Source: a virus
Taxonomy: Duplodnaviria; Caudoviricetes
DNA: 64,000 nucleotides
IMG/VR virus record: IMGVR_UViG_3300015615_000196
Span: 64,001 to 128,000 of that record
Direction: 5' to 3' (one strand)
How positions within the stretch are numbered: the first letter of the stretch is position 1; each line of letters begins with the position of its first letter. Position numbers and translations under genes: made by a program. Under the pieces are notes generated by a model that worked only from the letters and a program-made list of their open reading frames with translations, did not search any database and was not told where the DNA came from. Positions 2,702-37,297 of the stretch are shown piece after piece.

Positions 2702-4501
2702 TTAACGTCTGCCCAATTTGATTTCAACACGTCTGTTCTTTGCACGACCAGTCGCAGTTGAGTTATCAGCAATCGGCATGTCTTGTCCGAAACCGTTGGT
2801 AGTAATTTTTGCAGCGAAATCCGCATCTTTTGCAATCAGCCAGTTACGTACAGAGTTTGCACGAGCCTGTGACAGATTACGGTTGTCTTCTGCTCTACCA
2901 GTATTGTCAGTGTGACCGTTGATAGTCACCAAAAGGTTCTCAGCAACAACAAGGTCATTCAACAACTTGTTGAGTGTTTCAGTTGATCTCGGAGAGATCG
3001 TAGCACTACCAGTTTCGAACTCGATAGTTACGGCCTTCGAAGATACAAGGCTTGACATGGTCTCACCTTCTTTGAAAGTCTGCGTACTTGCTACTGTCAT
3101 TTCCGCATTATTCCTGTTGGCATTGTATACCGAAGTCAGGTATGAAAGATCAAGTATGTCCGTGAACGGAGTGTATGTAGGAAGTCTTTCAGGGTACGAT
3201 GCGGTTGCAATGTCACCGAAAGTAGTGTATACGGCTTCGTACTTGTTAACACCACCGTTCAAACCGAAGTAGACGGCATTGTCAGCTAAGTTGAATACAC
3301 GCGAACCACCAAGTTCTACAATGTTACCTTGTGCATCAGAATATTGGAAGCCTTTGAAGTACTTCTCCCATTCCTGTGCGGTAAGGTCACCGTAAAGTTC
3401 GGCAGCTACACCAGTTGCATAAGTAAGTGCTTGTGAGTGTGATTTTACTTGGTCACCACCTAAAGCAGCAGCCAAGATAAAGTTCTCAACTTTCTTACGA
3501 TTGCTTTCCAACCAGTCGCCACAAGCAAGCCATGCGTTCGGCATTTGTGCACCGTAGTCTTTAGTTGAAGCAAGTGAAACAAGTCCACCTTTCTGTTGAA
3601 CTGCGTTTACGTCACCGGGAGTCCATGTTACCACGCCATCAACGACAACAGTAGTATCACGACCAGTACGCTTTCCGTTGATTACAACAGGACGCTTTTC
3701 TTTTTGACCAGCGATGTACAACTTAGATGCAAGAAGATAGTCATCAACTGCAAGCCAGTTTACGGCATTAGGATCGTAAGTAGTAGGATCGTTGTTAACA
3801 GGGATTTGGTTGTCAGAGCAATATTTCATTGCAATGTTCCAGTCACCGTCAAGGATAACACCAGCTACAAGTGAACCACGAAGATTCTGAGGATCACGCT
3901 TTGCAGAAGGACGGCCAAGAAACTTGTCTTCACCGAATGATGCACCACCAGCATAGAATACTTTGATCTGATACTTTTCACCAAGAGTTTTCTTGATGGT
4001 TTCGTTCAAACCAGATGCGAGACCGGGAACACCGTCACCCATCCATGCGATCATGTGGTAACCCTTTCCAGAGTTTACATTGCCTTGCGCATAGTCCTGA
4101 ATGAAGGCATACAGTTGATTAGCTTGCTCAGTACAGTTGTTTTGGGTGATCAACTTGAGTTTCACACCGTGTTCTTCCATGAGCGAACCTTTGGTAGTTG
4201 TGATACCACCGTTTGCGTAAAGGATACCAGATTGAGCGTTCCAGCCCATGATACCTGCACGAATTACACCACCGCCCATGTCCGACACATCGTGTGAAGG
4301 AAGTGCACGGGTAGGTGCGTTTGCGGTCTTGTCATACTCCAACGGAGGAAGATCATTTACCGTTACGACCTGTGATGCTTTGACGGTCTTCGGGATCAAG
4401 CCACTGTCAACGACAACGTACTTCACTCCGTAACCGACTGCGAATACTGAAACTGCGAGTAGCAATTTACTGAACAACGTCAGATTTTTGAAAAACTTCA
4501 T
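2702..4501 (-). CDS. substrate-binding protein fused to C-terminal OmpA-like peptidoglycan-binding domain
   Basis: N-terminal anchor; C-terminal FETGSA...GHTDNTG...NLSQARANSV...KNRRVEI OmpA_C motifs. Confidence 0.88.
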   Translation of the reverse strand: MKFFKNLTLFSKLLLAVSVFAVGYGVKYVVVDSGLIPKTVKASQVVTVNDLPPLEYDKTANAPTRALPSHDVSDMGGGVIRAGIMGWNAQSGILYANGGITTTKGSLMEEHGVKLKLITQNNCTEQANQLYAFIQDYAQGNVNSGKGYHMIAWMGDGVPGLASGLNETIKKTLGEKYQIKVFYAGGASFGEDKFLGRPSAKRDPQNLRGSLVAGVILDGDWNIAMKYCSDNQIPVNNDPTTYDPNAVNWLAVDDYLLASKLYIAGQKEKRPVVINGKRTGRDTTVVVDGVVTWTPGDVNAVQQKGGLVSLASTKDYGAQMPNAWLACGDWLESNRKKVENFILAAALGGDQVKSHSQALTYATGVAAELYGDLTAQEWEKYFKGFQYSDAQGNIVELGGSRVFNLADNAVYFGLNGGVNKYEAVYTTFGDIATASYPERLPTYTPFTDILDLSYLTSVYNANRNNAEMTVASTQTFKEGETMSSLVSSKAVTIEFETGSATISPRSTETLNKLLNDLVVAENLLVTINGHTDNTGRAEDNRNLSQARANSVRNWLIAKDADFAAKITTNGFGQDMPIADNSTATGRAKNRRVEIKLGRR

Positions 4502-4565
4502 ACTTTTTTAAGGTTTAAATTGAACAATTAATATATGTGCTTATACGTGTTAAGCCAATCAAAGT

Positions 4566-7676: not shown

Positions 7677-8216
7677 TTACTTCTTTTCAAACAAGTCAGT
7701 ATCGTCATCTTTGCCAGTCTCGAAGGCTTTGTCAGTACGTGTGCTGGTAACGATGTTAAGTTCCGGCAGTACATGGCCACCAAGTGTGCTAACAAAAAAT
7801 CGACTTGGGAAAAGCGTGAGCAGGTTCTTCATTTCATTGTGAATCGAAATGAGTTTGCTTTGAACCATTGTAAATTTCGTTCGATACGTTTCGATGCTGA
7901 TCATCAAAGTCTTGTAGAGCGATGCATCGAAATTGGGATTGGACTCCGTGATCCACTTCATCATTTCTCCACCGTAATTGCGGGAACTCATGATTCGTGA
8001 ATAGTTCTTTTCGAAACTCTCAGAATATTGATCTGTCACCCCGGCTTGTTGCTTGAGGATTTTCCACATTTCATCGTGGACGAGTTTGTCTTGTTCGACT
8101 TGAGCCTCATACAGGTTGTTGAGGGTTACGTACTTGTTGTCGTAAACGAAGTACATGATTACACCAGTGAGGCCGATGAAGGCAGCAATGATGATAGCGA
8201 TAAGCGATTTATTCAT
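7677..8216 (-). CDS. LemA-like membrane-anchored protein
   Basis: N-terminal TM, helical bundle, LLTLFPSRFF motif, adjacent to TPM-like gene. Confidence 0.55.
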   Translation of the reverse strand: MNKSLIAIIIAAFIGLTGVIMYFVYDNKYVTLNNLYEAQVEQDKLVHDEMWKILKQQAGVTDQYSESFEKNYSRIMSSRNYGGEMMKWITESNPNFDASLYKTLMISIETYRTKFTMVQSKLISIHNEMKNLLTLFPSRFFVSTLGGHVLPELNIVTSTRTDKAFETGKDDDTDLFEKK

Positions 8217-8922: not shown

Positions 8923-9311
8923 TTAGTGTCGGTGTCTTCTTGATCTGATTCCTCTTCGTCATCATCTTCATCAATGACTTCTGTATTACTGCCATCAGCG
9001 AAATTCCATTCGTATCGTGCAGCGTTTTGTTTGTAGTCATTGATTTCTACCTTATCAACACTGAATGAAATGGTGCTACCCTGCGTGAGCGTTTGAGCAA
9101 TGTATCCATGAAGTTGATCAGAAGGAATCAAATGAAATTTCTCAACTGGACAATAGAAGCCCTCACTGCCATCGTTGGCATAGACGACTTCCATGTATTC
9201 CTCTGGCTTCTCTTCTCGCTTTTCAATTTCGCGTTTTACCCGGCCTTGCAGCCAACTTAGTTCGTACTCATTGAGTAGACCAAAGTCTATGTCATCAATA
9301 TTTCTACCCAT
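8919..9311 (-). CDS. hypothetical protein
   Basis: ORF overlapping neighbours; acidic tail. Confidence 0.6.
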   Translation of the reverse strand: MGRNIDDIDFGLLNEYELSWLQGRVKREIEKREEKPEEYMEVVYANDGSEGFYCPVEKFHLIPSDQLHGYIAQTLTQGSTISFSVDKVEINDYKQNAARYEWNFADGSNTEVIDEDDDEEESDQEDTDTK

Positions 9312-10050
9312 TCCTTAGAATCTGAAAGTATCTATCTTTCAGTAATCGGAGGTAAATATCGTTAGGAATTCCGTAATTTCCAATAGCCCACATATCGTTA
9401 AATTCAACGACTGCGTTTTCATTGCTGTGTGACCACGTACTGTTCTCAGGGTCGCCCATAAACACACCAATATCGATGGTATAGGCATCCGGGAAATCGG
9501 CCTTATTTTCCTGAATAACTTGTTCAACGTAATAGGGGTTAAACATCAGGCAGTAGTCTCCTGAATAGTTTCGAGCATCGACCATCTTATTGTGATGGAC
9601 ATAGACTCTCCATTCGCTTTCAAGTTTTCTCGAAAACGGCTGATACGCGAAAACCTTTGTGTCGTCCGGCAGGTCGTTGAGTATCGTGTACTTCATTCCA
9701 TCAAGAACGAGTCCAGTGAATATTTTCAATTCCAATGGTTTGATGAAAAGTTTCTCACCAGCATCGGCACGAGTCTTTGCTTCGAGCAATGTGATGATCT
9801 CGGATTTACGATTTGAATTCCGGGGAAGGCGTATTTCTCCCTTACCCAACTGTCTGAAAACTTCACGCATGAAGTCAGTTGAACCAACGGCAAGATTTTG
9901 ACGCAATAAACCATTTAGACGACCAGATTGTACTTCTTCAAACGAAGTCAATCGAACGTCCATGCAATTGTCCATTGCACCGTACCACGCACAAGCAGCA
10001 TCGAAATGATGGGCGTGTGTTCTCTCGCTATTTGACTGAACTAATACCAT
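9304..10050 (-). CDS. ATP-grasp protein (R2K/DUF4343-like)
   Basis: LFIKP, FTG, SEWRVYV, YTIDIG, VVEFND motifs. Confidence 0.75.
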   Translation of the reverse strand: MVLVQSNSERTHAHHFDAACAWYGAMDNCMDVRLTSFEEVQSGRLNGLLRQNLAVGSTDFMREVFRQLGKGEIRLPRNSNRKSEIITLLEAKTRADAGEKLFIKPLELKIFTGLVLDGMKYTILNDLPDDTKVFAYQPFSRKLESEWRVYVHHNKMVDARNYSGDYCLMFNPYYVEQVIQENKADFPDAYTIDIGVFMGDPENSTWSHSNENAVVEFNDMWAIGNYGIPNDIYLRLLKDRYFQILRNG

Positions 10051-11062
10051 GCTTTAATTCGTTAGGCGTTACTTTATCGTGCATCCAATGTGTGTCTCCG
10101 ATTTGAAATCTTGAGGAAACAAATTTTGCAACTGATGTTGAAAATTCATCGTACTCAAATTCTCCTGCCAATCGAATCACATAACCTTCGCAAGGGTCTC
10201 CATCGTATTCGGGTTTGTAGAGATCACGAATTTGATCGTAATCAAAAATTCCCCGATACAACACCGGAACAGGAGTGAGTCCAAACAACTCACAAATGTC
10301 AAGTGTGTCGTCCCATGACATGCACATTGTTTCTCGCCATATTGAATAGACGTAGAAATATGTGCTCAAATTTTTGTAATGAATGGTGTGCTTGGCAAAC
10401 ATATTCTCGCCACAGATACGATCACGTTCATCGAGAATGTAATTAATGTTTCCCCACAAGCCCTTCACCCAATCACGGGACGGATGCTTTCCAGAATTGA
10501 TTGATCTGGCGTGAATGTGATCTTTGTACATGGTTGTGTTCTCTCCATCAAGTTTCACCGTCACAATTACTTCCTTCCCTGTAAAATGCGTTATCGAGTC
10601 GAGAACCCTGTCGTCCTTCGTCATCTTTTCACTCCAAGGCAAATGTGGAGTTCTCGGATATTTTACGTGTTTCATCAAAAACTTATTTAAGATTTCGGCA
10701 GGTAAGATTTTCTGAACTTGTTCTGCCGAGAACATTTCTCCCGGTATTCGATACCCCTCTTCCAGAACAATATTACCCCACTTGTCGTATACGTAATCCG
10801 GGTCAAAATGTTGCGGGAGAACCAATATTTTTATCCCTGCCCGTGTCCGCAAATCCTCACAGGACAGCACGGTTTGTTCGGCCAGAATATGACATTTGGC
10901 ACACAAAGAAACGCCATTTTCCATATAGTAGCCACCATCTTCGAACAATTTTCGCTCAATGATATGGTGGGCATCTACGGCAATATCTCCACACCAGACG
11001 CACTTTTGCTTGTCCCGCTTGAAAATATTTTCCCTGAAATCGTCTCTTTTTAACAAAACCAT
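10028..11062 (-). CDS. HNH endonuclease fused to RNA ligase domain
   Basis: N-term RDKQKCVWCG..DAHHI..NGVSLCAKCH; C-term KYPRTPHLPWS, KLDGEN, CGEN, EGYVIR, AKFV. Confidence 0.85.
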   Translation of the reverse strand: MVLLKRDDFRENIFKRDKQKCVWCGDIAVDAHHIIERKLFEDGGYYMENGVSLCAKCHILAEQTVLSCEDLRTRAGIKILVLPQHFDPDYVYDKWGNIVLEEGYRIPGEMFSAEQVQKILPAEILNKFLMKHVKYPRTPHLPWSEKMTKDDRVLDSITHFTGKEVIVTVKLDGENTTMYKDHIHARSINSGKHPSRDWVKGLWGNINYILDERDRICGENMFAKHTIHYKNLSTYFYVYSIWRETMCMSWDDTLDICELFGLTPVPVLYRGIFDYDQIRDLYKPEYDGDPCEGYVIRLAGEFEYDEFSTSVAKFVSSRFQIGDTHWMHDKVTPNELKHGISSVK

Positions 11063-11098
11063 GCAACAAAATTAATAGATTTGCGTATAACAGAAAAT

Positions 11099-12010
11099 AT
11101 GGATAGAAGAGTTTTAGAAGTTATTGCCACTGTCGGCATCCCTGCAAGCGGGAAGAGTACTTGGTCGATTCAAAAGATCAAGAACGATCCTTCTTTTGTC
11201 AGAATTAATCGTGACGATTTTCGTTTCATGATGAAGGATGCCCCTGTGTGCGATCCAAAGATTGAAGGTATCATTTCCAAGTTGGTCTTGAATGCCGTTG
11301 ACGTTTGCTTGATGAAGAATCTCAGCGTCATCGTTGATCAGACTCACTTGAAGGCTGAGTATATCGAAGCCCTTGCTGAACACGTAAAGTATCGTGCAAA
11401 CTTCCGTGTGCAGTTGTTCGACATTTCGCTTGACAAAGCGATTGAGCGTGACAACGCCCGTGAGAAGAAGGTCGGTGAAGCCGTGATCAGAAAGATGTGG
11501 AAGGACTACCGTAGTCTTGTTGACGGTAACGGAAAGATTTTCGAAAGCAGATCGATCCAGAAGCATGTCTACAAGAACCCGGTTTACGTTCCTACTCTTG
11601 AGGAAGTGATCTTGTGTGACCTTGACGGTACACTTGCTCACATGAACGGAAAGAGAGGGCCATTCGAATGGTTGAAGACTGACATCGATGACCTTGATGA
11701 AATTGTCGCAAAGACAATCAAGGATCACGTTGCGCTTGGACATAAGGTCATCTTTATGTCTGGTCGTGATGAAGAAGGTCGTGAGAAGACTGAGCAGTGG
11801 CTCGAATTCTACGGCTTCAAGTATCATGCATTGTACATGCGTAAGCGTGGAGACTTCCGTAAGGATAACATCGTGAAGGAAGAACTCTACAATGAGCATA
11901 TCAAGGGCAAGTACAACGTCCGTGTCATCTACGATGACCGACAACAAGTTGTAGATATGTGGAGATCGCTTGGTCTCAAGGTTTTCCAAGTTGAAAAGGG
12001 AGATTTTTAA
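11099..12010 (+). CDS. pseT: polynucleotide 5'-kinase/3'-phosphatase (T4 PseT-like)
   Basis: P-loop GIPASGKST, RINRDDFR; HAD DLDGTLA, SGR, DDR; ATG at 11099 just after promoter. Confidence 0.92.
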   Translation: MDRRVLEVIATVGIPASGKSTWSIQKIKNDPSFVRINRDDFRFMMKDAPVCDPKIEGIISKLVLNAVDVCLMKNLSVIVDQTHLKAEYIEALAEHVKYRANFRVQLFDISLDKAIERDNAREKKVGEAVIRKMWKDYRSLVDGNGKIFESRSIQKHVYKNPVYVPTLEEVILCDLDGTLAHMNGKRGPFEWLKTDIDDLDEIVAKTIKDHVALGHKVIFMSGRDEEGREKTEQWLEFYGFKYHALYMRKRGDFRKDNIVKEELYNEHIKGKYNVRVIYDDRQQVVDMWRSLGLKVFQVEKGDF

Positions 12011-16410: not shown

Positions 16411-16580
16411 ACGTCACAAATTTAAAAATGAAATAAAAAGTCCACCCTGAGCGACCTGTTCAATGGGAAGGCGGGTGGACATGTTAAGGATAAATACTGA
16501 CCCTGAGAACGATTCACAACTAAAGTAGAATTAATGCCAGATGTTTCACCAGCACGTTTGGTCAGGAATATTACCAGTAT

Positions 16581-16856
16581 CTATACCTTATTCTCTCGAT
16601 TCTTTCCTAAATGATAACCGTCACACCAGAGGCATTTATAGTTACTGAAATAAACGCCCCTCTTCTCAGACATTTTCTTTGCTGATTTTTGAGCCGTCTC
16701 TTTCGTGTTGTAACTCACCTTCGGTTCACCATTATCTCTCAAATGGCTGCGCTTATCAATCAGACCAAGTAAGTGACCTTTGAAAAGATTTCTCATTAAT
16801 CTCTTCATCGGTAGCTGGTCTTTAAACGCCAGTCTTATGTTTCTTAACTTGATCAT
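16581..16856 (-). CDS. hypothetical protein with YKCxxCxxYH motif
   Basis: YKCLWCDGYHL. Confidence 0.6.
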   Translation of the reverse strand: MIKLRNIRLAFKDQLPMKRLMRNLFKGHLLGLIDKRSHLRDNGEPKVSYNTKETAQKSAKKMSEKRGVYFSNYKCLWCDGYHLGKNRENKV

Positions 16857-16858
16857 AG

Positions 16859-16940
16859 TGGGAGCAGTAGGACTCGAACCTACGAAGCCCGGAGGCGACA
16901 GATTTACAGTCTGTTGTAATTGCCGCTATACGATACTCCC
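16859..16940 (-). tRNA. tRNA-Tyr(GTA)
   Basis: Cloverleaf; ACAGA-CTGTAAA-TCTGT; long variable arm. Confidence 0.92.
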
Positions 16941-16946
16941 AACGGT

Positions 16947-17318
16947 TTATCGCAGTTCAACCTCAGCACCAGCATTCAACAACTGGTTCTTGATGTTCTC
17001 TGCATTCTCTTTCGAGACACCTTCCGAAATTACTTTTGGCGCACCGTCCACAAGGTCTTTCGATTCCTTCAAGCCGATGTTAAGAAGGTCTTTCACCAAC
17101 TTAACGATTTGAAGTTTGTTTGCACCTGCTGATTTAAGAACGATGTCAAAATTTGACTTTTCTGCTGGTACATAGTCCCCATCACCCGGTGGATGATAAA
17201 TTGGTGCTGCGACTGATTGCTCAATCCCATACGTCTCCTTTAAATACTCTGCAAGTTCTTTTACCTCTTTGACAGAGAGATTCACAAGTTGATCACCGAG
17301 TGCTTTTACATCTTTCAT
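16947..17318 (-). CDS. rplL: 50S ribosomal protein L7/L12 (bL12)
   Basis: LSVKEVKELAEYLKETYGI N-domain; FDIVLKSAGANKLQIVKLVK..GLKESKDLVDGAP..GAEVELR C-domain. Confidence 0.95.
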   Translation of the reverse strand: MKDVKALGDQLVNLSVKEVKELAEYLKETYGIEQSVAAPIYHPPGDGDYVPAEKSNFDIVLKSAGANKLQIVKLVKDLLNIGLKESKDLVDGAPKVISEGVSKENAENIKNQLLNAGAEVELR

Positions 17319-17959
17319 ACAGTTACAAGTTTTACGTCCTTCATTTCTGATTCAAACAAAGATACGTCTTTTTTTCTTAATCTTTCAAACCAGTCATCGG
17401 TTTTGATTTTACAGTAGTACAATTCAGGTCTCCCTTTCTTCGTTACTGAAACACCCTTACAGATGACTCCTTCCGTCAAGTTGAATTCGTTGGCTTTTAC
17501 TCGCGCAACCAATTCCTTATTTAAGTTTCCTTCATACACCACTCGCGGTATTCCAACCGATCCGAAATCCTTGACGAAATCTCTCGGTGGTACAAATCCG
17601 TTTTTGTATTGATCAACGTCAAAAAGAACGATGTCAAATTCATCGTTACCAAATTCGTGCTGACCAAATGCTGACTTCGTTCCAACCAGTTCAGCGTAGC
17701 AAACGAAACTCAAAATATTTCTGTACTCCCGTGATCGAAATATCTTGGAGAGAGATTCGTTGTACTTGTTCATGAACAAATCAATTGCGAATCCGAACTC
17801 GGAATTTTTGTCGATCATTTGTTTCCGAGTACCGAACTTGTAGAAGCCACGCTTGTGCGAGTATTCAAATCGCAAGTTCGATCCATCCAATTTATCAAAT
17901 GCAACTATTGGTAGTCCCCAATAATCACCGTAGTACTCAATACTATCGTACTGTTTCAT
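17315..17959 (-). CDS. RNA ligase-like nucleotidyltransferase (Rnl2-type)
   Basis: KLDGSN, YAE, LFDV, EGVICK, KIKT motifs; true start MKQYDS at 17959 (upstream part of track ORF is a tRNA). Confidence 0.78.
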   Translation of the reverse strand: MKQYDSIEYYGDYWGLPIVAFDKLDGSNLRFEYSHKRGFYKFGTRKQMIDKNSEFGFAIDLFMNKYNESLSKIFRSREYRNILSFVCYAELVGTKSAFGQHEFGNDEFDIVLFDVDQYKNGFVPPRDFVKDFGSVGIPRVVYEGNLNKELVARVKANEFNLTEGVICKGVSVTKKGRPELYYCKIKTDDWFERLRKKDVSLFESEMKDVKLVTV

Positions 17960-17968
17960 AAATAAAGT

Positions 17969-18054
17969 TGGTGGGCAGGGAGGGATTCGAACCCCCGAAC
18001 TCCGAAGAGGACGCATTTACAGTGCGTTGCCGTTAACCACTTGGCTACCTACCC
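17969..18054 (-). tRNA. tRNA-Tyr(GTA), CCA encoded
   Basis: ACGCA-CTGTAAA-TGCGT; long variable arm. Confidence 0.93.
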
Positions 18055-18061
18055 ATTGATG

Positions 18062-18133
18062 TACCCTCGGAGAGATTCGAACTCTCGACTCGCTGATTAA
18101 GAGTCAGCTACTCTACCACTGAGTTACGAAGGT
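18062..18133 (-). tRNA. tRNA-Lys(CTT)
   Basis: GCTGA-CTCTTAA-TCAGC. Confidence 0.92.
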
Positions 18134-18138
18134 ATCTG

Positions 18139-18211
18139 TTCCCCTGTTTGGAATCGAACCAAACCCCACTGATTAAGAGTCAGTTGCCTACAGCCAGTTT
18201 GCTACAGAGGA
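18139..18211 (-). tRNA. tRNA-Lys(CTT)
   Basis: ACTGA-CTCTTAA-TCAGT. Confidence 0.88.
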
Positions 18212-18218
18212 ATATAAG

Positions 18219-18365
18219 TGGGATAGAGGGGAATTGCACCAATCGAAAGCCACAGCTAAATCTTTATGTACAATATTACAAATAGCCTAATCTTTCTTTT
18301 ATTTACCTTAGCCTTTTGAGCACCGTCTTCATGACGGCTCCGTTCATTTCACGAAAAGCTATCCC
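18219..18365 (-). ncRNA. 147-nt tRNA-like RNA with large insertion (possible aberrant Ser-TGA)
   Basis: Acceptor GGGATAG/CTATCCC-A, GCCGT-CATGAAG-ACGGT hairpin, weak T-arm GGTGCAATTCC. Confidence 0.5.
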
Positions 18366-18449
18366 ATATTTCAAAGAACGTGGGGATTGTACTGTGGCGA
18401 TTTCTCGATCTGACTGAACAGATTGCACATACTACTTCGTCCCCGAAAG

Positions 18450-18522
18450 TACCCCCATTTGGAATCGAACCAAACCCTTCTGGTTAAAAGCCAGAAGCCC
18501 ACGACCAGTCTGCTATGGAGGC
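18450..18522 (-). tRNA. tRNA-Lys(TTT)
   Basis: TCTGG-CTTTTAA-CCAGA. Confidence 0.88.
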
Positions 18523-18531
18523 ATAACTGTG

Positions 18532-18604
18532 TGTCCCCGGAGAGGTTCGAACTCTCGACTCCCACATTAAAAGTGTGGTACTCTACCAACTGAGTTACAG
18601 AGAC
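18532..18604 (-). tRNA. tRNA-Lys(TTT)
   Basis: CCACA-CTTTTAA-TGTGG. Confidence 0.92.
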
Positions 18605-18621
18605 TTTATTTAAGTTTTCTG

Positions 18622-18709
18622 TGCACCCGGTGGGAATCGAACCCACTTTATGCTTGCGCCTTTATTGATTAAAAGTCAATTGCCTCAATCTCCGGTCGGC
18701 CACGAGTGC
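18622..18709 (-). tRNA. tRNA-Lys(TTT) with atypical long variable arm
   Basis: ATTGA-CTTTTAA-TCAAT then 17-nt variable region, canonical T-arm. Confidence 0.78.
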
Positions 18710-18805
18710 AGAGTTTTATCATCCACTCCCGTGTACGGGGTGGAGACTAAGGTTTTCGTTTCAATCTTAAAGCGTAATACATAAAATGTTCGTTCAAATG
18801 TTCTG

Positions 18806-18876
18806 TGGGTTAGGAGGGATTCGAACCCTCGTGCCTACGTTTTACAGACGTTGCCCAATGCCCCGTTGTCCAACCC
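18806..18876 (-). tRNA. tRNA-Tyr(GTA), atypical short variable loop
   Basis: ACGT-CTGTAAA-ACGT; GAGGG-TTCGAAT-CCCTC T-arm. Confidence 0.75.
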
Positions 18877-18880
18877 GTAT

Positions 18881-18915
18881 AAAATAAAAAACCCGATCTT
18901 TTTCAGGGATCGGGT
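18881..18915 (-). terminator. attenuator terminator of Lys/Tyr tRNA array
   Basis: ACCCGATC-N9-GATCGGGT-TTTTTATTTT. Confidence 0.88.
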
Positions 18916-18941
18916 ATGTTCATATTGTTATGAAATGTCAA

Positions 18942-19007
18942 TTACATACTTTTTCCCTGTCTACTGAAAGACTTCTTATAGGTTTTATATGAATATGACT
19001 TTTTCAT
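18942..19007 (-). CDS. leader peptide MKKSYSYKTYKKSFSRQGKSM (Lys/Tyr sensor)
   Basis: 21-aa ORF between promoter and terminator; its 3' end is complementary to the terminator 5' arm. Confidence 0.82.
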   Translation of the reverse strand: MKKSYSYKTYKKSFSRQGKSM

Positions 19008-19027
19008 TGTCGTTGTCAATTGTGGTA

Positions 19028-19066
19028 CAAATGTACACTTAAATACGGGGAAGTCAAGAAAAGGTT
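19028..19066 (-). promoter_or_regulatory. tandem AAC-N16-CGT and TAnnTTTG promoters for leader 1
   Basis: GCAACCTTTTCTTGACTTCCCCGTATTTA...TACATTTG. Confidence 0.65.
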
Positions 19067-19281: not shown

Positions 19282-19986
19282 TCATATGTCAAAATTGAAT
19301 CCACCTTTTTTCAATTGTTCGTATTTTTCTTTGTTGAACTGGAAGATGATCGCTCGTCTTCCGATGTGACCAGATGTTTTCTTTCTTGTGTTTCGAAGAA
19401 GGTTGTATCCGTTGATCTTCTTCATGAAGTTTCTTCGATCAAGACCTTCTCCAAGAATCGCTTCATAAAGTGCAAAGAGATCACTCATGGTAAATTCTTC
19501 CGGCAAGAGATCAAATCCAATCGGCTCATACTTAATCTTGTTCTGCAATCTTTCGAAAGCATAGGCCATGATCTTGTAATGATCAAATGCAAATTGCAGT
19601 TTGAGGGTGTCTTTGAGTGGGAACCACTTTACTTCTTTTGCATGAAGATTCGGTGACAGAGAATGATTCTCTGGATTGATCAACACGTAGTATGAGATTG
19701 AAATGATTCTTTCTCGTGGATCACGTTTCACATCCGTGAACGTGTAGAGTTGTTCAAGGTACGTGAGATCGATGTTGGTTTCTTCTTTAAGTTTTCGGAT
19801 GACTGCTTTCTCAGCATTCTCCGTGTCCTCAATGAAACCACCGGGTAACGCCCACTTGTTGAGGTACGGCTCAAATGCTCTCTTGATCAAGAGGACATTC
19901 AGCTTCTTCTCAATGTAAGCAAAAACTATCGCGTCAACAGTAACCTTCATTTTCAACAAATTTATCAATTTTTCCTTGAATTCCAA
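19282..19986 (-). CDS. nrtR: NrtR-family Nudix + wHTH regulator
   Basis: WALPGGF, EQLYTF..RDPRER, LAF-like FAFDH, FTMSDL...DRRNF. Confidence 0.88.
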   Translation of the reverse strand: MEFKEKLINLLKMKVTVDAIVFAYIEKKLNVLLIKRAFEPYLNKWALPGGFIEDTENAEKAVIRKLKEETNIDLTYLEQLYTFTDVKRDPRERIISISYYVLINPENHSLSPNLHAKEVKWFPLKDTLKLQFAFDHYKIMAYAFERLQNKIKYEPIGFDLLPEEFTMSDLFALYEAILGEGLDRRNFMKKINGYNLLRNTRKKTSGHIGRRAIIFQFNKEKYEQLKKGGFNFDI

Positions 19987-20389
19987 AGTACTTTTTTATC
20001 GGTAACCAGTCGGTTTCCGCATCGAAACCTGCCTTGTCTTCAAACAGTACGTTGAAGTACGGCTTGTCTTCGTAGTACCCGTAGGTTGTGTTTTTCACAT
20101 CGGGGTTGTTGTTCACGTACTCGAACAGAATACCATGTGAAGCAAAGAAGCCCATATAACGGTCGATCTCCTTCGGATATGAACAGGTAAAGAGTGCAAT
20201 CGTCACGTCCTTACGTCTTGAAAGGTATTGCAGTACTTCCTTGGCGTGAGGATAGAACTTCAACGGATCAGCGTTATTGTAATCCGGGTAGAGGATCGTT
20301 TCGTGAATATCAAAGTAGAAATATACTTTGTCCCATCCACGCTTCTGCATGTTCTTGAATGTCTTGTCGATTGCTTTGAGTACGCTCAT
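19934..20389 (-). CDS. HAD-like hypothetical protein
   Basis: FDIHETIL, LFTCS, KPYFNVLFEDKAGF. Confidence 0.6.
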   Translation of the reverse strand: MSVLKAIDKTFKNMQKRGWDKVYFYFDIHETILYPDYNNADPLKFYPHAKEVLQYLSRRKDVTIALFTCSYPKEIDRYMGFFASHGILFEYVNNNPDVKNTTYGYYEDKPYFNVLFEDKAGFDAETDWLPIKKYFGIQGKIDKFVENEGYC

Positions 20390-21297
20390 TGTGTCAAAAT
20401 TGTTTTAAGTGCTTTATGGAATTCTCCTGCTACTTCAACTTCTTTGAAGCCGATGTAGCTTTTTGCTTGCTCTGGATATGGCAATGTATTTGTTGTATAC
20501 ACAAACGGTGTATGAGGGCATACAGCAAACTTAGTCACTGCAACACCAGAAAACAAACCGTGTGCAGCAAAAACATATACGTTTTTCGCTCCGTTTTCTT
20601 TTAGGGTATCGATTGCTTTCAGGATCGTTCCACCTGTGTCGATCATGTCGTCCACAAGAATTACATCACAATCAGTAACGTCTCCTATCAAGGTCATCTT
20701 CTCAACCTTGTTTGCTTCCTTTCTTTCCTTGTCGATTATCGCGAAACCACAACCTAATGCCTGTGCATATTTCTTTGCACGTTTCATTCCACCCAAGTCA
20801 GGAGAAATGATTTTCGGGTTCTTGAGATCGATGGCTTTGATTTCATCAACCAGCAATCCCATTGGATCGAGATTGTAGAATGGTATCTTGTAGAACCCTT
20901 CAATGGCTGTTGTGTGAACATCCATTGTAACCAGTCGATCAAGACCAGCTACTTGAAGCATATCAGCAAGCAAACGTGCTGAGATCGTAGTCCTAACCTT
21001 TTCTTCTCTGCGTTCCTGACGAGAGTGTGGAAGGTATGGGATAATGCCAATGATCTCCCGTGCACTTGCTCTACGAGCAGCGTCAATGGTTTCAAGAAGT
21101 TCGAAAATGTCTTCATACGTTCTTGGTTGTGACACAACCACAATCGATTCATTACGAACCGATTCTTCAATGACAACGGTGATCTCACCATTGGCAAATT
21201 TGGTTTTGTGAATTTGACCAAGAGTATATCCAGCATTACACTTTACAAGTTTCTTGGTGAATTCTTCGCTGTTCGATTGTGGGAATATCTTTACCAT
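20386..21297 (-). CDS. prs: ribose-phosphate pyrophosphokinase (Prs/Adps-like)
   Basis: FANGE, PYLPHSRQ, MDVH, SPDLGG, VDDMIDTGGT. Confidence 0.92.
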   Translation of the reverse strand: MVKIFPQSNSEEFTKKLVKCNAGYTLGQIHKTKFANGEITVVIEESVRNESIVVVSQPRTYEDIFELLETIDAARRASAREIIGIIPYLPHSRQERREEKVRTTISARLLADMLQVAGLDRLVTMDVHTTAIEGFYKIPFYNLDPMGLLVDEIKAIDLKNPKIISPDLGGMKRAKKYAQALGCGFAIIDKERKEANKVEKMTLIGDVTDCDVILVDDMIDTGGTILKAIDTLKENGAKNVYVFAAHGLFSGVAVTKFAVCPHTPFVYTTNTLPYPEQAKSYIGFKEVEVAGEFHKALKTILTQ

Positions 21298-21299
21298 GA

Positions 21300-21581
21300 T
21301 TACATGAATTTAATGACTTTCAAAATTTGTTCGTAGGACATTTCGTTTAGCATGTTCTCGGCTTTCTCCAAGTACTGCCTTCTTGACGATCCCGGATTCT
21401 TCCAGCTTTCGTAAAACCAACCACACTGGTCTTCGTGTGCCCAATGACATTGTTTCTCGTGCAAGAGTTCTGCAACCCTTTGTACTTCTGTCAAACCATT
21501 GAAAGCAACTCTCTGTGCTTTCAAATCTCGAATTTGTTTTTCGAGTTCAAGGATTTTGTCGTCAATATCAAAAATCTTCAT
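21300..21581 (-). CDS. hypothetical protein
   Basis: 93-aa ORF in operon. Confidence 0.55.
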   Translation of the reverse strand: MKIFDIDDKILELEKQIRDLKAQRVAFNGLTEVQRVAELLHEKQCHWAHEDQCGWFYESWKNPGSSRRQYLEKAENMLNEMSYEQILKVIKFM

Positions 21582-21604
21582 AACCGTAAGTTTAAAGAAG
21601 TGGC

Positions 21605-23245
21605 TTACGCAGCCACTTCTTGATGTTGATACTTATTCAGCAATGCTTCTCTTGTGTCGAGTACGAACTTGCTTGCAGGGTAGTTCTTGTTCTCTGCGGT
21701 TTCGAGAGAATTCGGCATCGAATTGAATTGCTCTTTAATTCTTGCCTTTATCGTCAAGAAATCATCATCTTGACCTACACCATATGGTTCTTCAATTCGA
21801 GCACCGTTGAAGTACTCAACCATTGCGTTCTCGCCTTCTTCATTTGCGTTCACGATGGTTTCTTTGTTTGCAATGGCTTCGGCAGAACGAAGAACTTTGA
21901 ATGGGCCGGGTAATGTGGTCTTACCCACTTCACCGAATTTAACCACTGGCTTGTCATCAGTTCCAACTGCACAAAGTGCGTATTTGGCAGAAAGGTTGTC
22001 GCGTTTCAGTGCGTTTCTCAAACCACCACCAACACCGAACAATCCCCATGAGTAAGGCATGAAACCTCTTTCGATCATTGCATCGATGATGGTTTTCATT
22101 TCACCGAAGGTCATACCGTCCCCTTCAATGAAGTGGAGAGTAGTAGCGAATTTCCATTCTTTACCTGCAATTACTTTGGTTGTAAACAAACCATTGTCCA
22201 CTGCAAGTTGGCAAGTCCAAAGAACTTGTTCAAGTGCATCACCAGAGTCAGGACGAGCAACTACGATCTTGCCGTTGTTTTCGGCAACGCTACGCTTTGC
22301 AAGCGGGAGGTGATAGTTCTTTACTGCATAGAAGTAATCGTAGCAGTCACCAACCATTGAAACAAGTTCATCGTTAGCAGATGCTTCGTAGATTGCAGTG
22401 TAGCAATCACCTTCGAATTCGTATGATTGAACGTTTCTGTGTGCAAGTGCATTCACAGAAGAGAAAATTCCAGTCGTGTCTTTTCCTTCACTGTTCTTGT
22501 ATGCTTGGTATGCACCAGCAAACGTGTCAGTTCCACCGAAGGTGTACAGGTGAACCATTCCGAGCATTTCTGATTCCTCAGCAACGATACCAGCACGATC
22601 ACCAAAGTCGTGAAGCATGATACTGGCAAAGAAGTCAGCTTCGGCATCACTCAATTCAGGATTGATTCTCTTGAAGGTACTCTTCAAGTATGCAAACCAG
22701 TGTTGATTTTGCGTTACACGCTCACTTGCTGCCCATACGTGCAAAAGTTTGCTTTCAAACCATGCACCAAGTACACCAACTTGTTCTTCGGTCAAACCGA
22801 CACTGGTAACTTGAATTACGGGTTCGTTCGGGTATACCACGCTACCTTCCGGCATGGCAAGGATTTGAATCGGAGGACGACCGTTGTATTTGTCAACAAC
22901 CAATCTCCACAGTTCTTCCGGCACATAGAATCTCTTGAATCCTTTGGTAGTGACTTTCGCCATCTTCAAGAATTCAATTGCTTCATCGATCTCAGCATGT
23001 GTGATCGGTTCGTAGAACAGTTTATCCAGAATTGGTTGCAGACCATTGAAAATGATCTTGTCATTTCCCTTCACATAAAGTTCAGGGTTGATCGATGCCA
23101 ATCGTCTGCGGAAGGTAATGTAGTAGGTCGATTTATCTTTTGCATCTTGGCTTTCGAATGGATTTGAACCAATCGTGTATGCGTCTGCAACTAAAAGTCT
23201 CGGAGTTTTGTGGACTCTGCGCTTGGGTAATTTAACGGTTTTCAT
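21605..23245 (-). CDS. nadV: nicotinamide phosphoribosyltransferase (NadV/NAMPT-like)
   Basis: DAY, PEGS, LHDFGDRA, GTDT, DCYD, RPDSGD, EGDG, FGVGGGL. Confidence 0.88.
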   Translation of the reverse strand: MKTVKLPKRRVHKTPRLLVADAYTIGSNPFESQDAKDKSTYYITFRRRLASINPELYVKGNDKIIFNGLQPILDKLFYEPITHAEIDEAIEFLKMAKVTTKGFKRFYVPEELWRLVVDKYNGRPPIQILAMPEGSVVYPNEPVIQVTSVGLTEEQVGVLGAWFESKLLHVWAASERVTQNQHWFAYLKSTFKRINPELSDAEADFFASIMLHDFGDRAGIVAEESEMLGMVHLYTFGGTDTFAGAYQAYKNSEGKDTTGIFSSVNALAHRNVQSYEFEGDCYTAIYEASANDELVSMVGDCYDYFYAVKNYHLPLAKRSVAENNGKIVVARPDSGDALEQVLWTCQLAVDNGLFTTKVIAGKEWKFATTLHFIEGDGMTFGEMKTIIDAMIERGFMPYSWGLFGVGGGLRNALKRDNLSAKYALCAVGTDDKPVVKFGEVGKTTLPGPFKVLRSAEAIANKETIVNANEEGENAMVEYFNGARIEEPYGVGQDDDFLTIKARIKEQFNSMPNSLETAENKNYPASKFVLDTREALLNKYQHQEVAA

Positions 23246-23269
23246 ATCAGTAAGTGTTTATTGTAATTG

Positions 23270-24184
23270 TTATTTCGTGAGTTTGTGCTTCAAGAGTGCA
23301 AGCAAATGTTGATGTTCCCCAACTACTTCGGTAGCGTTGAGTGTCTTCACATTGAACCAACGTACTTCTGTGATGTCATCATTTGCTTTTTCTGAACCAC
23401 CACCGAAAACTTTCTTTGCTTTGAAGAACGTAGTCATGATTGATCTTCCGTTTTCCGAACGGTATCTCCAATCTTTTACTTTTGCCGAAGCGATGTACTG
23501 GATGTCATCGATTTCAACACCAGTTTCTTCGTATGCTTCTCTGCGAACAGTTTGTTCGAGACTTTCATCTGCAACATCAGCGAAACCACCAATGAAACGG
23601 AATTCAACTTCGTCTTTCTTACGGCCAAGCAGAACCTGACTTTCGTCTTCATTCATGATGGCTACATCGATTGTCGGGTGAACGAAGTCGTAGGTATTGT
23701 AGCAAGCGTAGATTACACCAGCACGAAATTCTTTGATACGTTCCACCTTCTTTGAAACCGACTTTCTGATTTCGGTAGCAGACACCATTGATTGTGGAAC
23801 AAGTTCGTTTACATCAAATTTGCCGTGATAGTGAGGGATGAATGAATCGCGTGATCCGTAAAGAACGACTGAACCAAGTGGAAATACTTCTCTGATCTTG
23901 GTATCAACTTGTGCTGACCATACGTTGTCTGATTTCTTGTCGTGTAACGGAAGAATCATTGAGATTTTGTTTCCGTAGACTTCTTCAAACATTACCTTTC
24001 TTGACATGAAGTCAAGTGGATTTGTTTTTGTTGAGAGTGTGGGTGATACCCCTAAGAAAAGGAGAACCCTTTCGTGGCGACTGATAACTTCATCGATCAG
24101 TGCCTTGTGTGCTTCGTGGAGTTCATGGATTTGAAAACGTCCGATGATGACTCCGATGTCGTATTTTTTCTTTAAGTCTTCCAT
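23270..24184 (-). CDS. nadM: bifunctional NMN adenylyltransferase / ADP-ribose Nudix hydrolase
   Basis: GRFQIHELHEAH, NPL, SATEIR; Nudix GGFAD...RREAYEETG, ANDD. Confidence 0.9.
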   Translation of the reverse strand: MEDLKKKYDIGVIIGRFQIHELHEAHKALIDEVISRHERVLLFLGVSPTLSTKTNPLDFMSRKVMFEEVYGNKISMILPLHDKKSDNVWSAQVDTKIREVFPLGSVVLYGSRDSFIPHYHGKFDVNELVPQSMVSATEIRKSVSKKVERIKEFRAGVIYACYNTYDFVHPTIDVAIMNEDESQVLLGRKKDEVEFRFIGGFADVADESLEQTVRREAYEETGVEIDDIQYIASAKVKDWRYRSENGRSIMTTFFKAKKVFGGGSEKANDDITEVRWFNVKTLNATEVVGEHQHLLALLKHKLTK

Positions 24185-34526: not shown

Positions 34527-34646
34527 TTAGTATCCAATATCTTCATCTTCCTCTTTAGACCCAACAATAGCGTCATCCTCCACCATAGCCAACGCTACGA
34601 CAGATTCCATCGCTAAAGTTTCTAAAGATAATATTGAAGTTTTCAT
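34527..34646 (-). CDS. leader peptide MKTSILSLETLAMESVVALAMVEDDAIVGSKEEDEDIGY
   Basis: 39-aa ORF between promoter and terminator; contains GTTGGGTCT complementary to the terminator 5' arm. Confidence 0.78.
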   Translation of the reverse strand: MKTSILSLETLAMESVVALAMVEDDAIVGSKEEDEDIGY

Positions 34647-37213: not shown

Positions 37214-37297
37214 ATGAAAAAGATCGTAAACGTAGTTCCGCAACCCCAACATCAGCCACAAAACCTGTTGCTTGGGGATACTATGATCGTATCTTAA
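37214..37297 (+). CDS. leader peptide MKKIVNVVPQPQHQPQNLLLGDTMIVS (Pro/Gln/His sensor)
   Basis: 27-aa ORF; CCG CAA CCC CAA CAT CAG CCA CAA run; GCTTGGGG complementary to the terminator arm. Confidence 0.85.
   Translation: MKKIVNVVPQPQHQPQNLLLGDTMIVS

Follow-up and report, generated by a model that had tools for sequence, protein, structure and literature searches.

The tRNA-Lys/tRNA-Tyr (Lys/Tyr) array described here lies on the minus strand of the 64-kb window that was analysed (positions 64,001–128,000 of IMG/VR virus record IMGVR_UViG_3300015615_000196); coordinates refer to this window unless marked as genome positions. The phage genome, labelled G000, is complete (362,603 bp with direct terminal repeats), and its 58 tRNA calls are grouped in four arrays that jointly span all 20 amino acids: Lys/Tyr in array 1 (window 16858–18876, minus strand), Asp/Leu/Ala/Glu/Met/Val in array 2, Pro/His/Gln in array 3 and Trp/Phe/Thr/Arg/Ile/Ser/Asn/Gly/Leu/Cys in array 4. 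Upstream of array 1 lie the following features, listed in the direction of transcription:

19040–19066, minus strand: extracytoplasmic function (ECF)-type promoter motif (AAC ... CGT box); the same motif precedes homologous leaders
19028–19057, minus strand: Bacteroidota sigmaA promoter, with a -7 box TAnnTTTG at 19035–19028 and an imperfect -33 box
18942–19007, minus strand: leader open reading frame (ORF) of 21 codons; codons 2–12 are the putative sensor and codons 17–21 the antiterminator strand
18944–18959, minus strand: antiterminator 5' strand, pairing with 18904–18919
18904–18919, minus strand: antiterminator 3' strand, overlapping the terminator 5' arm and loop
18881–18914, minus strand: intrinsic terminator, with a 7-bp hairpin (18914–18892, about -9.5 kcal/mol) and a U-tract (18891–18881)

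The tandem promoter motifs (19066–19028) sit directly upstream of the leader ORF and are kept in homologs. The sigmaA motif follows the Bacteroidota consensus, including its -7 box (PMC6847099), and the ECF-type motif is probably recognised by a sigma factor of the phage, whose genome codes for two sigma70 region-2 proteins of ~200 aa. As pointed out in an earlier note made from the DNA letters of this locus, the leader uses both Lys codons: its 21 codons comprise six Lys (3 AAA, 3 AAG), three Tyr (all TAT) and five Ser. Lys and Tyr make up 8/11 of codons 2–12, and when the common Lys-rich start is discounted, six Lys/Tyr codons remain in codons 4–12 (binomial p = 1.8e-4), a number reached by 1/4454 short ATG ORFs of the genome. 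The two antiterminator strands read and pair as that note had claimed, across the terminator arm, and their duplex has a z of about -3 relative to shuffled sequences. Between leader codons 12 and 16, a weak 4-bp hairpin is the sole candidate for a protector or pause (1:2) hairpin.

The five Ser codons had been entered as a caveat, the array containing no canonical tRNA-Ser. The count is right, and the difficulty is largely resolved by where these codons fall: codons 15 and 20 belong to the antiterminator or adjoin it, codon 13 is at its edge, and the two others are in the sensor. Since homologous Lys/Tyr sensors hold 0–2 Ser as part of a mixed filler, Ser was rejected as a required sensed residue. 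Tyr is written TAT in 31/32 cases in the leaders; phage genes prefer TAC. This bias could reflect wobble sensitivity or plain AT richness.

Homologs were sought with a search anchored on the tandem promoter and the start codon only, hence blind to codons and tRNAs. In nine of the 32 stretches so retrieved, a terminator comes after a short ORF, and all eight of those with enough downstream DNA lead into tRNA genes that match the ORF. Promoter search, ligase search and whole-record retrieval together gave nine Lys/Tyr cassettes (G000, G006–G011, L024 and L063), six of them from the promoter-only search. The eight homologous cassettes keep the layout and differ in sequence; a search with the exact leader-DNA pattern found no relative. 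The complete phages G006, G007 and G008 carry four cassettes each. In G000, each of arrays 2–4 is likewise preceded by a promoter, a leader and a terminator of its own, and the codons of the leader match the array that follows; two of these sister leaders lie in the window:

34527–34646, minus strand: leader of 39 codons, preceding the Asp/Leu/Ala/Glu/Met/Val array
37214–37297, plus strand: leader of 27 codons, preceding the Pro/His/Gln array

A detection rule that ignores codon content yielded 29 distinct leaders; its start-context and distance cut-offs miss the leader described here and three others, and two G000 leaders and that of L063 were added by coordinate to the rule-detected set. Cognate residues are enriched in 29/29 rule-detected leaders, and across these related phages the leader-to-array assignment score is 112.9, compared to a maximum of 49.0 in 100,000 permutations of the 29 leaders. 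Array partitions vary (Cys/Val/Leu, Asp/Phe/Glu/Ala, Pro/Gln/Tyr/Gly/Thr/Lys, Ser/Thr/Cys and others), each with a matching leader. More specifically, codon matching reaches the level of the tRNA species, because Trp codons and the codons of Leu isoacceptors track tRNA genes that change array. Thus, tRNA-Trp is a member of the large array in G000, G006 and G007, and a Trp codon is present in the leader of that array; in G008, both tRNA-Trp and the Trp codon are found with the Asp/Glu/Val/Leu/Ala array and its leader, and the leader of the large array lacks Trp. In phages that divide their Leu tRNAs between arrays, the leader preceding the TAA and CAA anticodons uses TTA/TTG only, and CTN codons are found in the leader preceding the TAG and AAG anticodons; where four Leu tRNAs share one array, as in G008, its leader uses both classes of Leu codons and the large-array leader contains no Leu.

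The alternative pairing is also general. In 30/32 leaders, the region located 5' of the terminator pairs with the 5' arm of the terminator above shuffles (p < 0.05, median z -3.3), whereas 0/23 ordinary terminators of this genome, used as a control, display such pairing. The sequences of the nine Lys/Tyr antiterminators are mostly different, and G007 keeps the antiterminator strands of G000 at the RNA level even though its leader stops inside them. In the nine cassettes, Lys/Tyr codons make up 60/122 of the codons ahead of the antiterminator and 4/72 of those inside it or beyond. With a ribosome footprint of 12 nt, a model of co-transcriptional masking predicts, in 9/9 cassettes, that the antiterminator is free for stalls throughout the Lys/Tyr run and lost 1–3 codons later; in the present leader the predicted change falls at codon 14–15.

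We therefore consider, with a probability of roughly 0.85, that the cassette is a ribosome-mediated transcription attenuator with tRNA as its output. The earlier note had proposed an attenuator that senses Lys/Tyr decoding and gates Lys/Tyr tRNAs, and conservation, controls and covariation strongly support this proposal. At the sequence level, the support consists of the parts, their order, the alternative pairing, the codon match, conservation and covariation. The position of the switch comes from the masking model, and we infer that the leader is translated and that switching does occur. In the proposed mechanism, host RNA polymerase would start near 19023 and a ribosome would translate the leader, with two possible courses: (i) fast decoding of the Lys and Tyr codons would carry the ribosome past codon 13 and over the antiterminator strand, so that the terminator would fold and transcription would stop near 18885, leaving an RNA of about 140 nt; (ii) a shortage of functional tRNA-Lys or tRNA-Tyr would make the ribosome stall in codons 2–12, the antiterminator would fold first and block the arm and loop of the terminator, and polymerase would continue into the genes for the Lys/Tyr tRNAs and for the ligase. 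The outcome would be a negative feedback replacing the missing tRNAs.

Several points weigh against this attenuator. The antiterminator of the present copy is among the weakest: it pairs with the loop and with 3/7 terminator-arm bases, and for stalls at codons 5–10 the equilibrium probability of the terminator is still 0.6–0.9. Since the terminator usually wins at equilibrium, the mechanism would need an order of folding set by transcription, as in classical attenuators, and in this copy it may leak or respond less strongly. In addition, kinship among the compared phages means that the 29 leaders are not 29 independent events and that the permutation values overstate independence. The trigger we favour would be tRNA loss during infection, caused by host anticodon nucleases or by general tRNA decay, and the chances that it is defence driven seem to us about even. 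A wider proposal, on which we would put similar odds, is that phages of Bacteroidota, ranging in size from podoviruses of 72 kb to giants of 630 kb, exert a modular surveillance of the host tRNA pool, in which parallel attenuators would test the whole code and open only the block destroyed by a nuclease, together with any repair enzyme inside it. If true, this would amount to a defence-agnostic inducible counter-defence, with the Lys/Tyr block as the module for the most attacked tRNAs.

The best-surviving alternative, tentative but clearly worth considering, retains the same switch and differs only in the signal: the natural trigger would be uncharged tRNA, produced by amino-acid starvation or by overload from phage translation, rather than the destruction of tRNAs by defences. 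Uncharged tRNA is what classical leaders sense, and the coverage of all 20 amino acids goes beyond what known nucleases target. Leader-peptide attenuation has also been proposed for flavobacterial biosynthesis operons (PMC9723704). However, the output of tRNA would presumably be no cure for an amino-acid shortage, codons are matched down to the isoacceptor level, RNA ligases and a polynucleotide kinase (PNK) are present in or near arrays, and Lys and Tyr tRNAs are known targets of defences (PMC11555353, PMC12409363).

Far less probable is that the terminator acts as a timing device, which the second promoter or an antitermination factor of the phage would overcome, the leader ORF and the pairing being incidental. 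The tandem host-type and ECF-type promoters and the phage sigma factors would suit such a device, but both promoters are upstream of the leader, and it would leave unexplained the codon matching, the covariation of this matching with array content and the antiterminators that ordinary terminators lack. That the leader encodes a functional small peptide, with the codon match as a by-product, is the least credible of all: most Lys/Tyr leaders do share a Tyr-Lys-x-Tyr-Lys motif, but their length (18–30 aa) and C-terminal half are not conserved, their composition changes with the array and the G007 stop codon lies inside the conserved pairing strand. A T-box riboswitch, with its Stem I, specifier loop and T-box bulge, was rejected, no Rfam match being found up to E 5.

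Under the attenuator mechanism, read-through would reach the tRNA genes of array 1, which occupy the following positions together with a tRNA-like element:

18805–18876, minus strand: tRNA-Tyr(GTA)-like, non-canonical, 72 nt, without a long variable arm and below the Rfam tRNA threshold
18621–18709, minus strand: tRNA-Lys(TTT), 89 nt, with a long variable region
18531–18604, minus strand: tRNA-Lys(TTT), canonical (ARAGORN)
18449–18522, minus strand: tRNA-Lys(TTT), atypical D arm (ARAGORN)
18216–18365, minus strand: tRNA-like shell of 150 nt, with a 7-bp acceptor-like stem, a UGA-centred loop and a ~65-nt insert (z -1.2, weak)
18138–18211, minus strand: tRNA-Lys(CTT), atypical D arm (ARAGORN)
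18061–18133, minus strand: tRNA-Lys(CTT), canonical (ARAGORN)
17969–18054, minus strand: tRNA-Tyr(GTA), class II, CCA encoded (ARAGORN)
16858–16940, minus strand: tRNA-Tyr(GTA) (ARAGORN)

ARAGORN thus agrees with the initial count of five tRNA-Lys (3 TTT, 2 CTT) and three tRNA-Tyr, the first tRNA-Tyr being non-canonical. The five tRNA-Lys do have different anticodon stems, as had been stated, although the two CTT stems differ by one base pair only; the anticodon loops are canonical in 5/5. At positions 39–41, the published cleavage site of the PARIS nuclease AriB on tRNA-Lys (PMC12409363), the E. coli site is kept in 3/5, the exceptions being two TTT tRNAs with a change at position 39 or 40. 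Such stem variation is compatible with nuclease evasion, without showing it. A second tRNA-like shell is found in the array at 18370–18446 (minus strand); the shells have no homolog and no Rfam match, and there is no support for the idea that the 150-nt UGA-loop shell is a tRNA-Ser matching the two TCA codons.

Protein-coding genes and signals at the distal end of the array are as follows:

17315–17959, minus strand: RNA ligase, 214 aa, a bare Rnl2/Rnl5-like nucleotidyltransferase domain (PF09414); true start at 17959
17357–17389, minus strand: candidate sigmaA promoter (TTTG-N21-TAnnTTTG) internal to the 3' part of the ligase gene, 38 nt before rplL
16947–17318, minus strand: rplL, encoding full-length bL12; passes TIGR00855, 62–69% identical to Cytophagales bL12
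16581–16856, minus strand: 91-aa ORF, probably the last cistron
16439–16480, minus strand: strong terminator, the next one downstream and the likely end of the read-through transcript

The invariant catalytic residues of the ligase (K23, D25, G26, E90, E163, K184 and K186) are intact, and its predicted structure (pLDDT 91.6) best matches NgrRnl (Z 14.5) and T4 Rnl2 (Z 13.7); PDB sequence searches with the ligase gave no match. Its description as Rnl2-like holds for the catalytic domain, motifs and fold, but the alignment covers only residues 2–234 of the 317 of T4 Rnl2, the C-terminal domain of which is absent. Close homologs of the ligase are often in or beside tRNA arrays of varied kinds. 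The ligase is inside the Lys/Tyr array of L024 too and is absent from the six Lys/Tyr arrays of G006–G011. The co-induction of repair and replacement suggested earlier is hence plausible where the array contains the ligase, as in G000 and L024, but it is not a conserved property of the cassette. In L002 and L028, the ligase follows a Tyr/Lys/Gln array, and a scan of the phage gave no leader–terminator unit, so that not every relative may have the switch. At window 10028–12010, a second RNA ligase (344 aa, PF09414), with an N-terminal Cys/His-rich part, is divergent from a T4-like PNK; this PNK and the second ligase are 5–7 kb away, and long ligases similar to the 344-aa one occur in G006 and G007. 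PNK and bL12 searches of viral contigs returned distant loci only.

No strong terminator interrupts the array, in keeping with the statement that none was evident between the tRNA genes, the ligase and rplL; the single, weak candidate (17747–17708) is within the ligase ORF. The internal promoter displays the full Bacteroidota consensus, for which chance would give about 1.4 occurrences per window; it was noticed post hoc and is found at the matching place in 1/21 ligase homologs. It could make the transcription of rplL, of the 91-aa ORF and of the last tRNA-Tyr independent of the leader. Among five records tested, bL12 occurs in G000 only. Compared to the bL12 of Ohtaekwangia, the phage protein has its Ala-rich hinge replaced by a Pro/Gly/Asp/Tyr-rich segment. 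Five residues at the end of the ligase recur at the start of bL12 and may mark an insertion junction. Ligase and bL12 were both rejected as core parts of the cassette, as they vary among related cassettes.

The host is probably a Cytophagales bacterium, because bL12 is closest to Cytophagales proteins, within the identity range given above (80/80 listed database matches being from Bacteroidota), and because the promoters have the Bacteroidota -7 box. Directly upstream of the cassette, a NAD salvage cluster (19282–24184, minus strand) encodes NAMPT, a PRPP synthetase, an NrtR regulator and a NUDIX-bearing 304-aa protein, NadM-like by inspection; we take it to recall phage NAD-reconstitution counter-defence. 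CRISPR-like repeats and spacers are present at both contig ends (genome positions 1–100 and 362500–362603). Calls of tRNAs with a CTA anticodon (amber suppressor-like) recur, at genome positions 299220–299292 and in arrays of G006, G007, G008 and G010.

The same design is found in other phages, cultured ones among them. Cellulophaga phage phi38:1 (KC821614.1) has three codon-matched leader cassettes (leaders at 7757–7834, 9218–9307 and 10461–10550 of stretch L189), whose Ala, Tyr, Trp and Cys codons match tRNA-like genes seen in the sequence and absent from the annotation; the three leader terminators lie near 35.4, 36.9 and 38.1 kb of KC821614.1. Six intergenic RNAs have been reported during phi38:1 infection (PMC5335546). 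Maribacter phage Panino (PP540027.1) has two cassettes (3377–3472 and about 4330–4530 of stretch L201), and the 635-kb huge phage LR745206.1 four in the region examined (15122, 16372, 37771 and 38823 of stretch L190). As phi38:1 and Panino carry the design, it is testable in culture. The reason why phages carry tRNAs, codon compensation versus counter-defence, has been open for more than 50 years (PMC10264068), and a switch opening each tRNA block only on slow reading of its codons makes this question testable. Leader-terminated versus read-through RNAs would report which tRNAs fail during infection of a given host, leader content flags unannotated tRNAs, as in phi38:1, and the cassettes could be used as reporters in the search for Bacteroidota defences that target tRNAs.

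With respect to phages whose tRNAs have been studied, the closest parallel is T5, the tRNA region of which counters retron-Eco7 PtuAB, PARIS and PrrC (PMC11555353, PMC12409363). As in T5, phage tRNA-Tyr and tRNA-Lys would replace host tRNAs destroyed by defence nucleases; T5 has strong promoters for its tRNA region, whereas the supply here appears conditional, and a scan of the tRNA regions of T5 and Mycobacterium phage Myrna detected no leader attenuator. The ligase shares its fold with T4 Rnl2 and Rnl5 (NgrRnl) but, with 214 aa, has neither the Rnl2 C-terminal nor the Rnl5 N-terminal domain; the PNK and second ligase nearby recall the T4 Pnk/Rnl repair system. Like known phage-encoded bL12 (PMC6375957), the rplL product is a phage copy of an exchangeable ribosomal protein; unlike them, it is full-length, ~65% identical to the likely host protein, inside a tRNA array and endowed with its own candidate promoter. 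T-box riboswitches, too, are terminator/antiterminator switches answering tRNA status, but they need uncharged tRNA as a ligand, whereas here a translated ORF would sense, and could also sense the absence of a tRNA.

Known leader-peptide attenuators include trpL and hisL, the multivalent thrL and ilvGMEDA leaders, and pheM-pheST. Like the trp, his, thr and ilv leaders, the cassette combines a promoter, a short leader with clustered cognate codons, and a mutually exclusive antiterminator and intrinsic terminator, and, like the multivalent thrL and ilvGMEDA leaders, it would sense several amino acids through one leader. In contrast to trp-type leaders, it has no clear separate protector hairpin, and the antiterminator seems to be masked by the ribosome itself. 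In contrast to amino-acid operon leaders, it is phage-borne, with parallel cassettes that span the whole code, and the gated genes, instead of biosynthetic enzymes or, as in pheM-pheST, a synthetase, are tRNAs. As predicted from its parts, the cassette falls within the structural definition of a leader-peptide attenuator and, on account of its output, outside the narrow biosynthesis/synthetase family, because the genes downstream are tRNAs, an RNA ligase and rplL. Our literature searches, with most subscription papers outside their scope, found no report of leader-peptide attenuation controlling tRNA genes. Judged by its sequence, the cassette would extend trp-type attenuation to tRNA genes and to phages.

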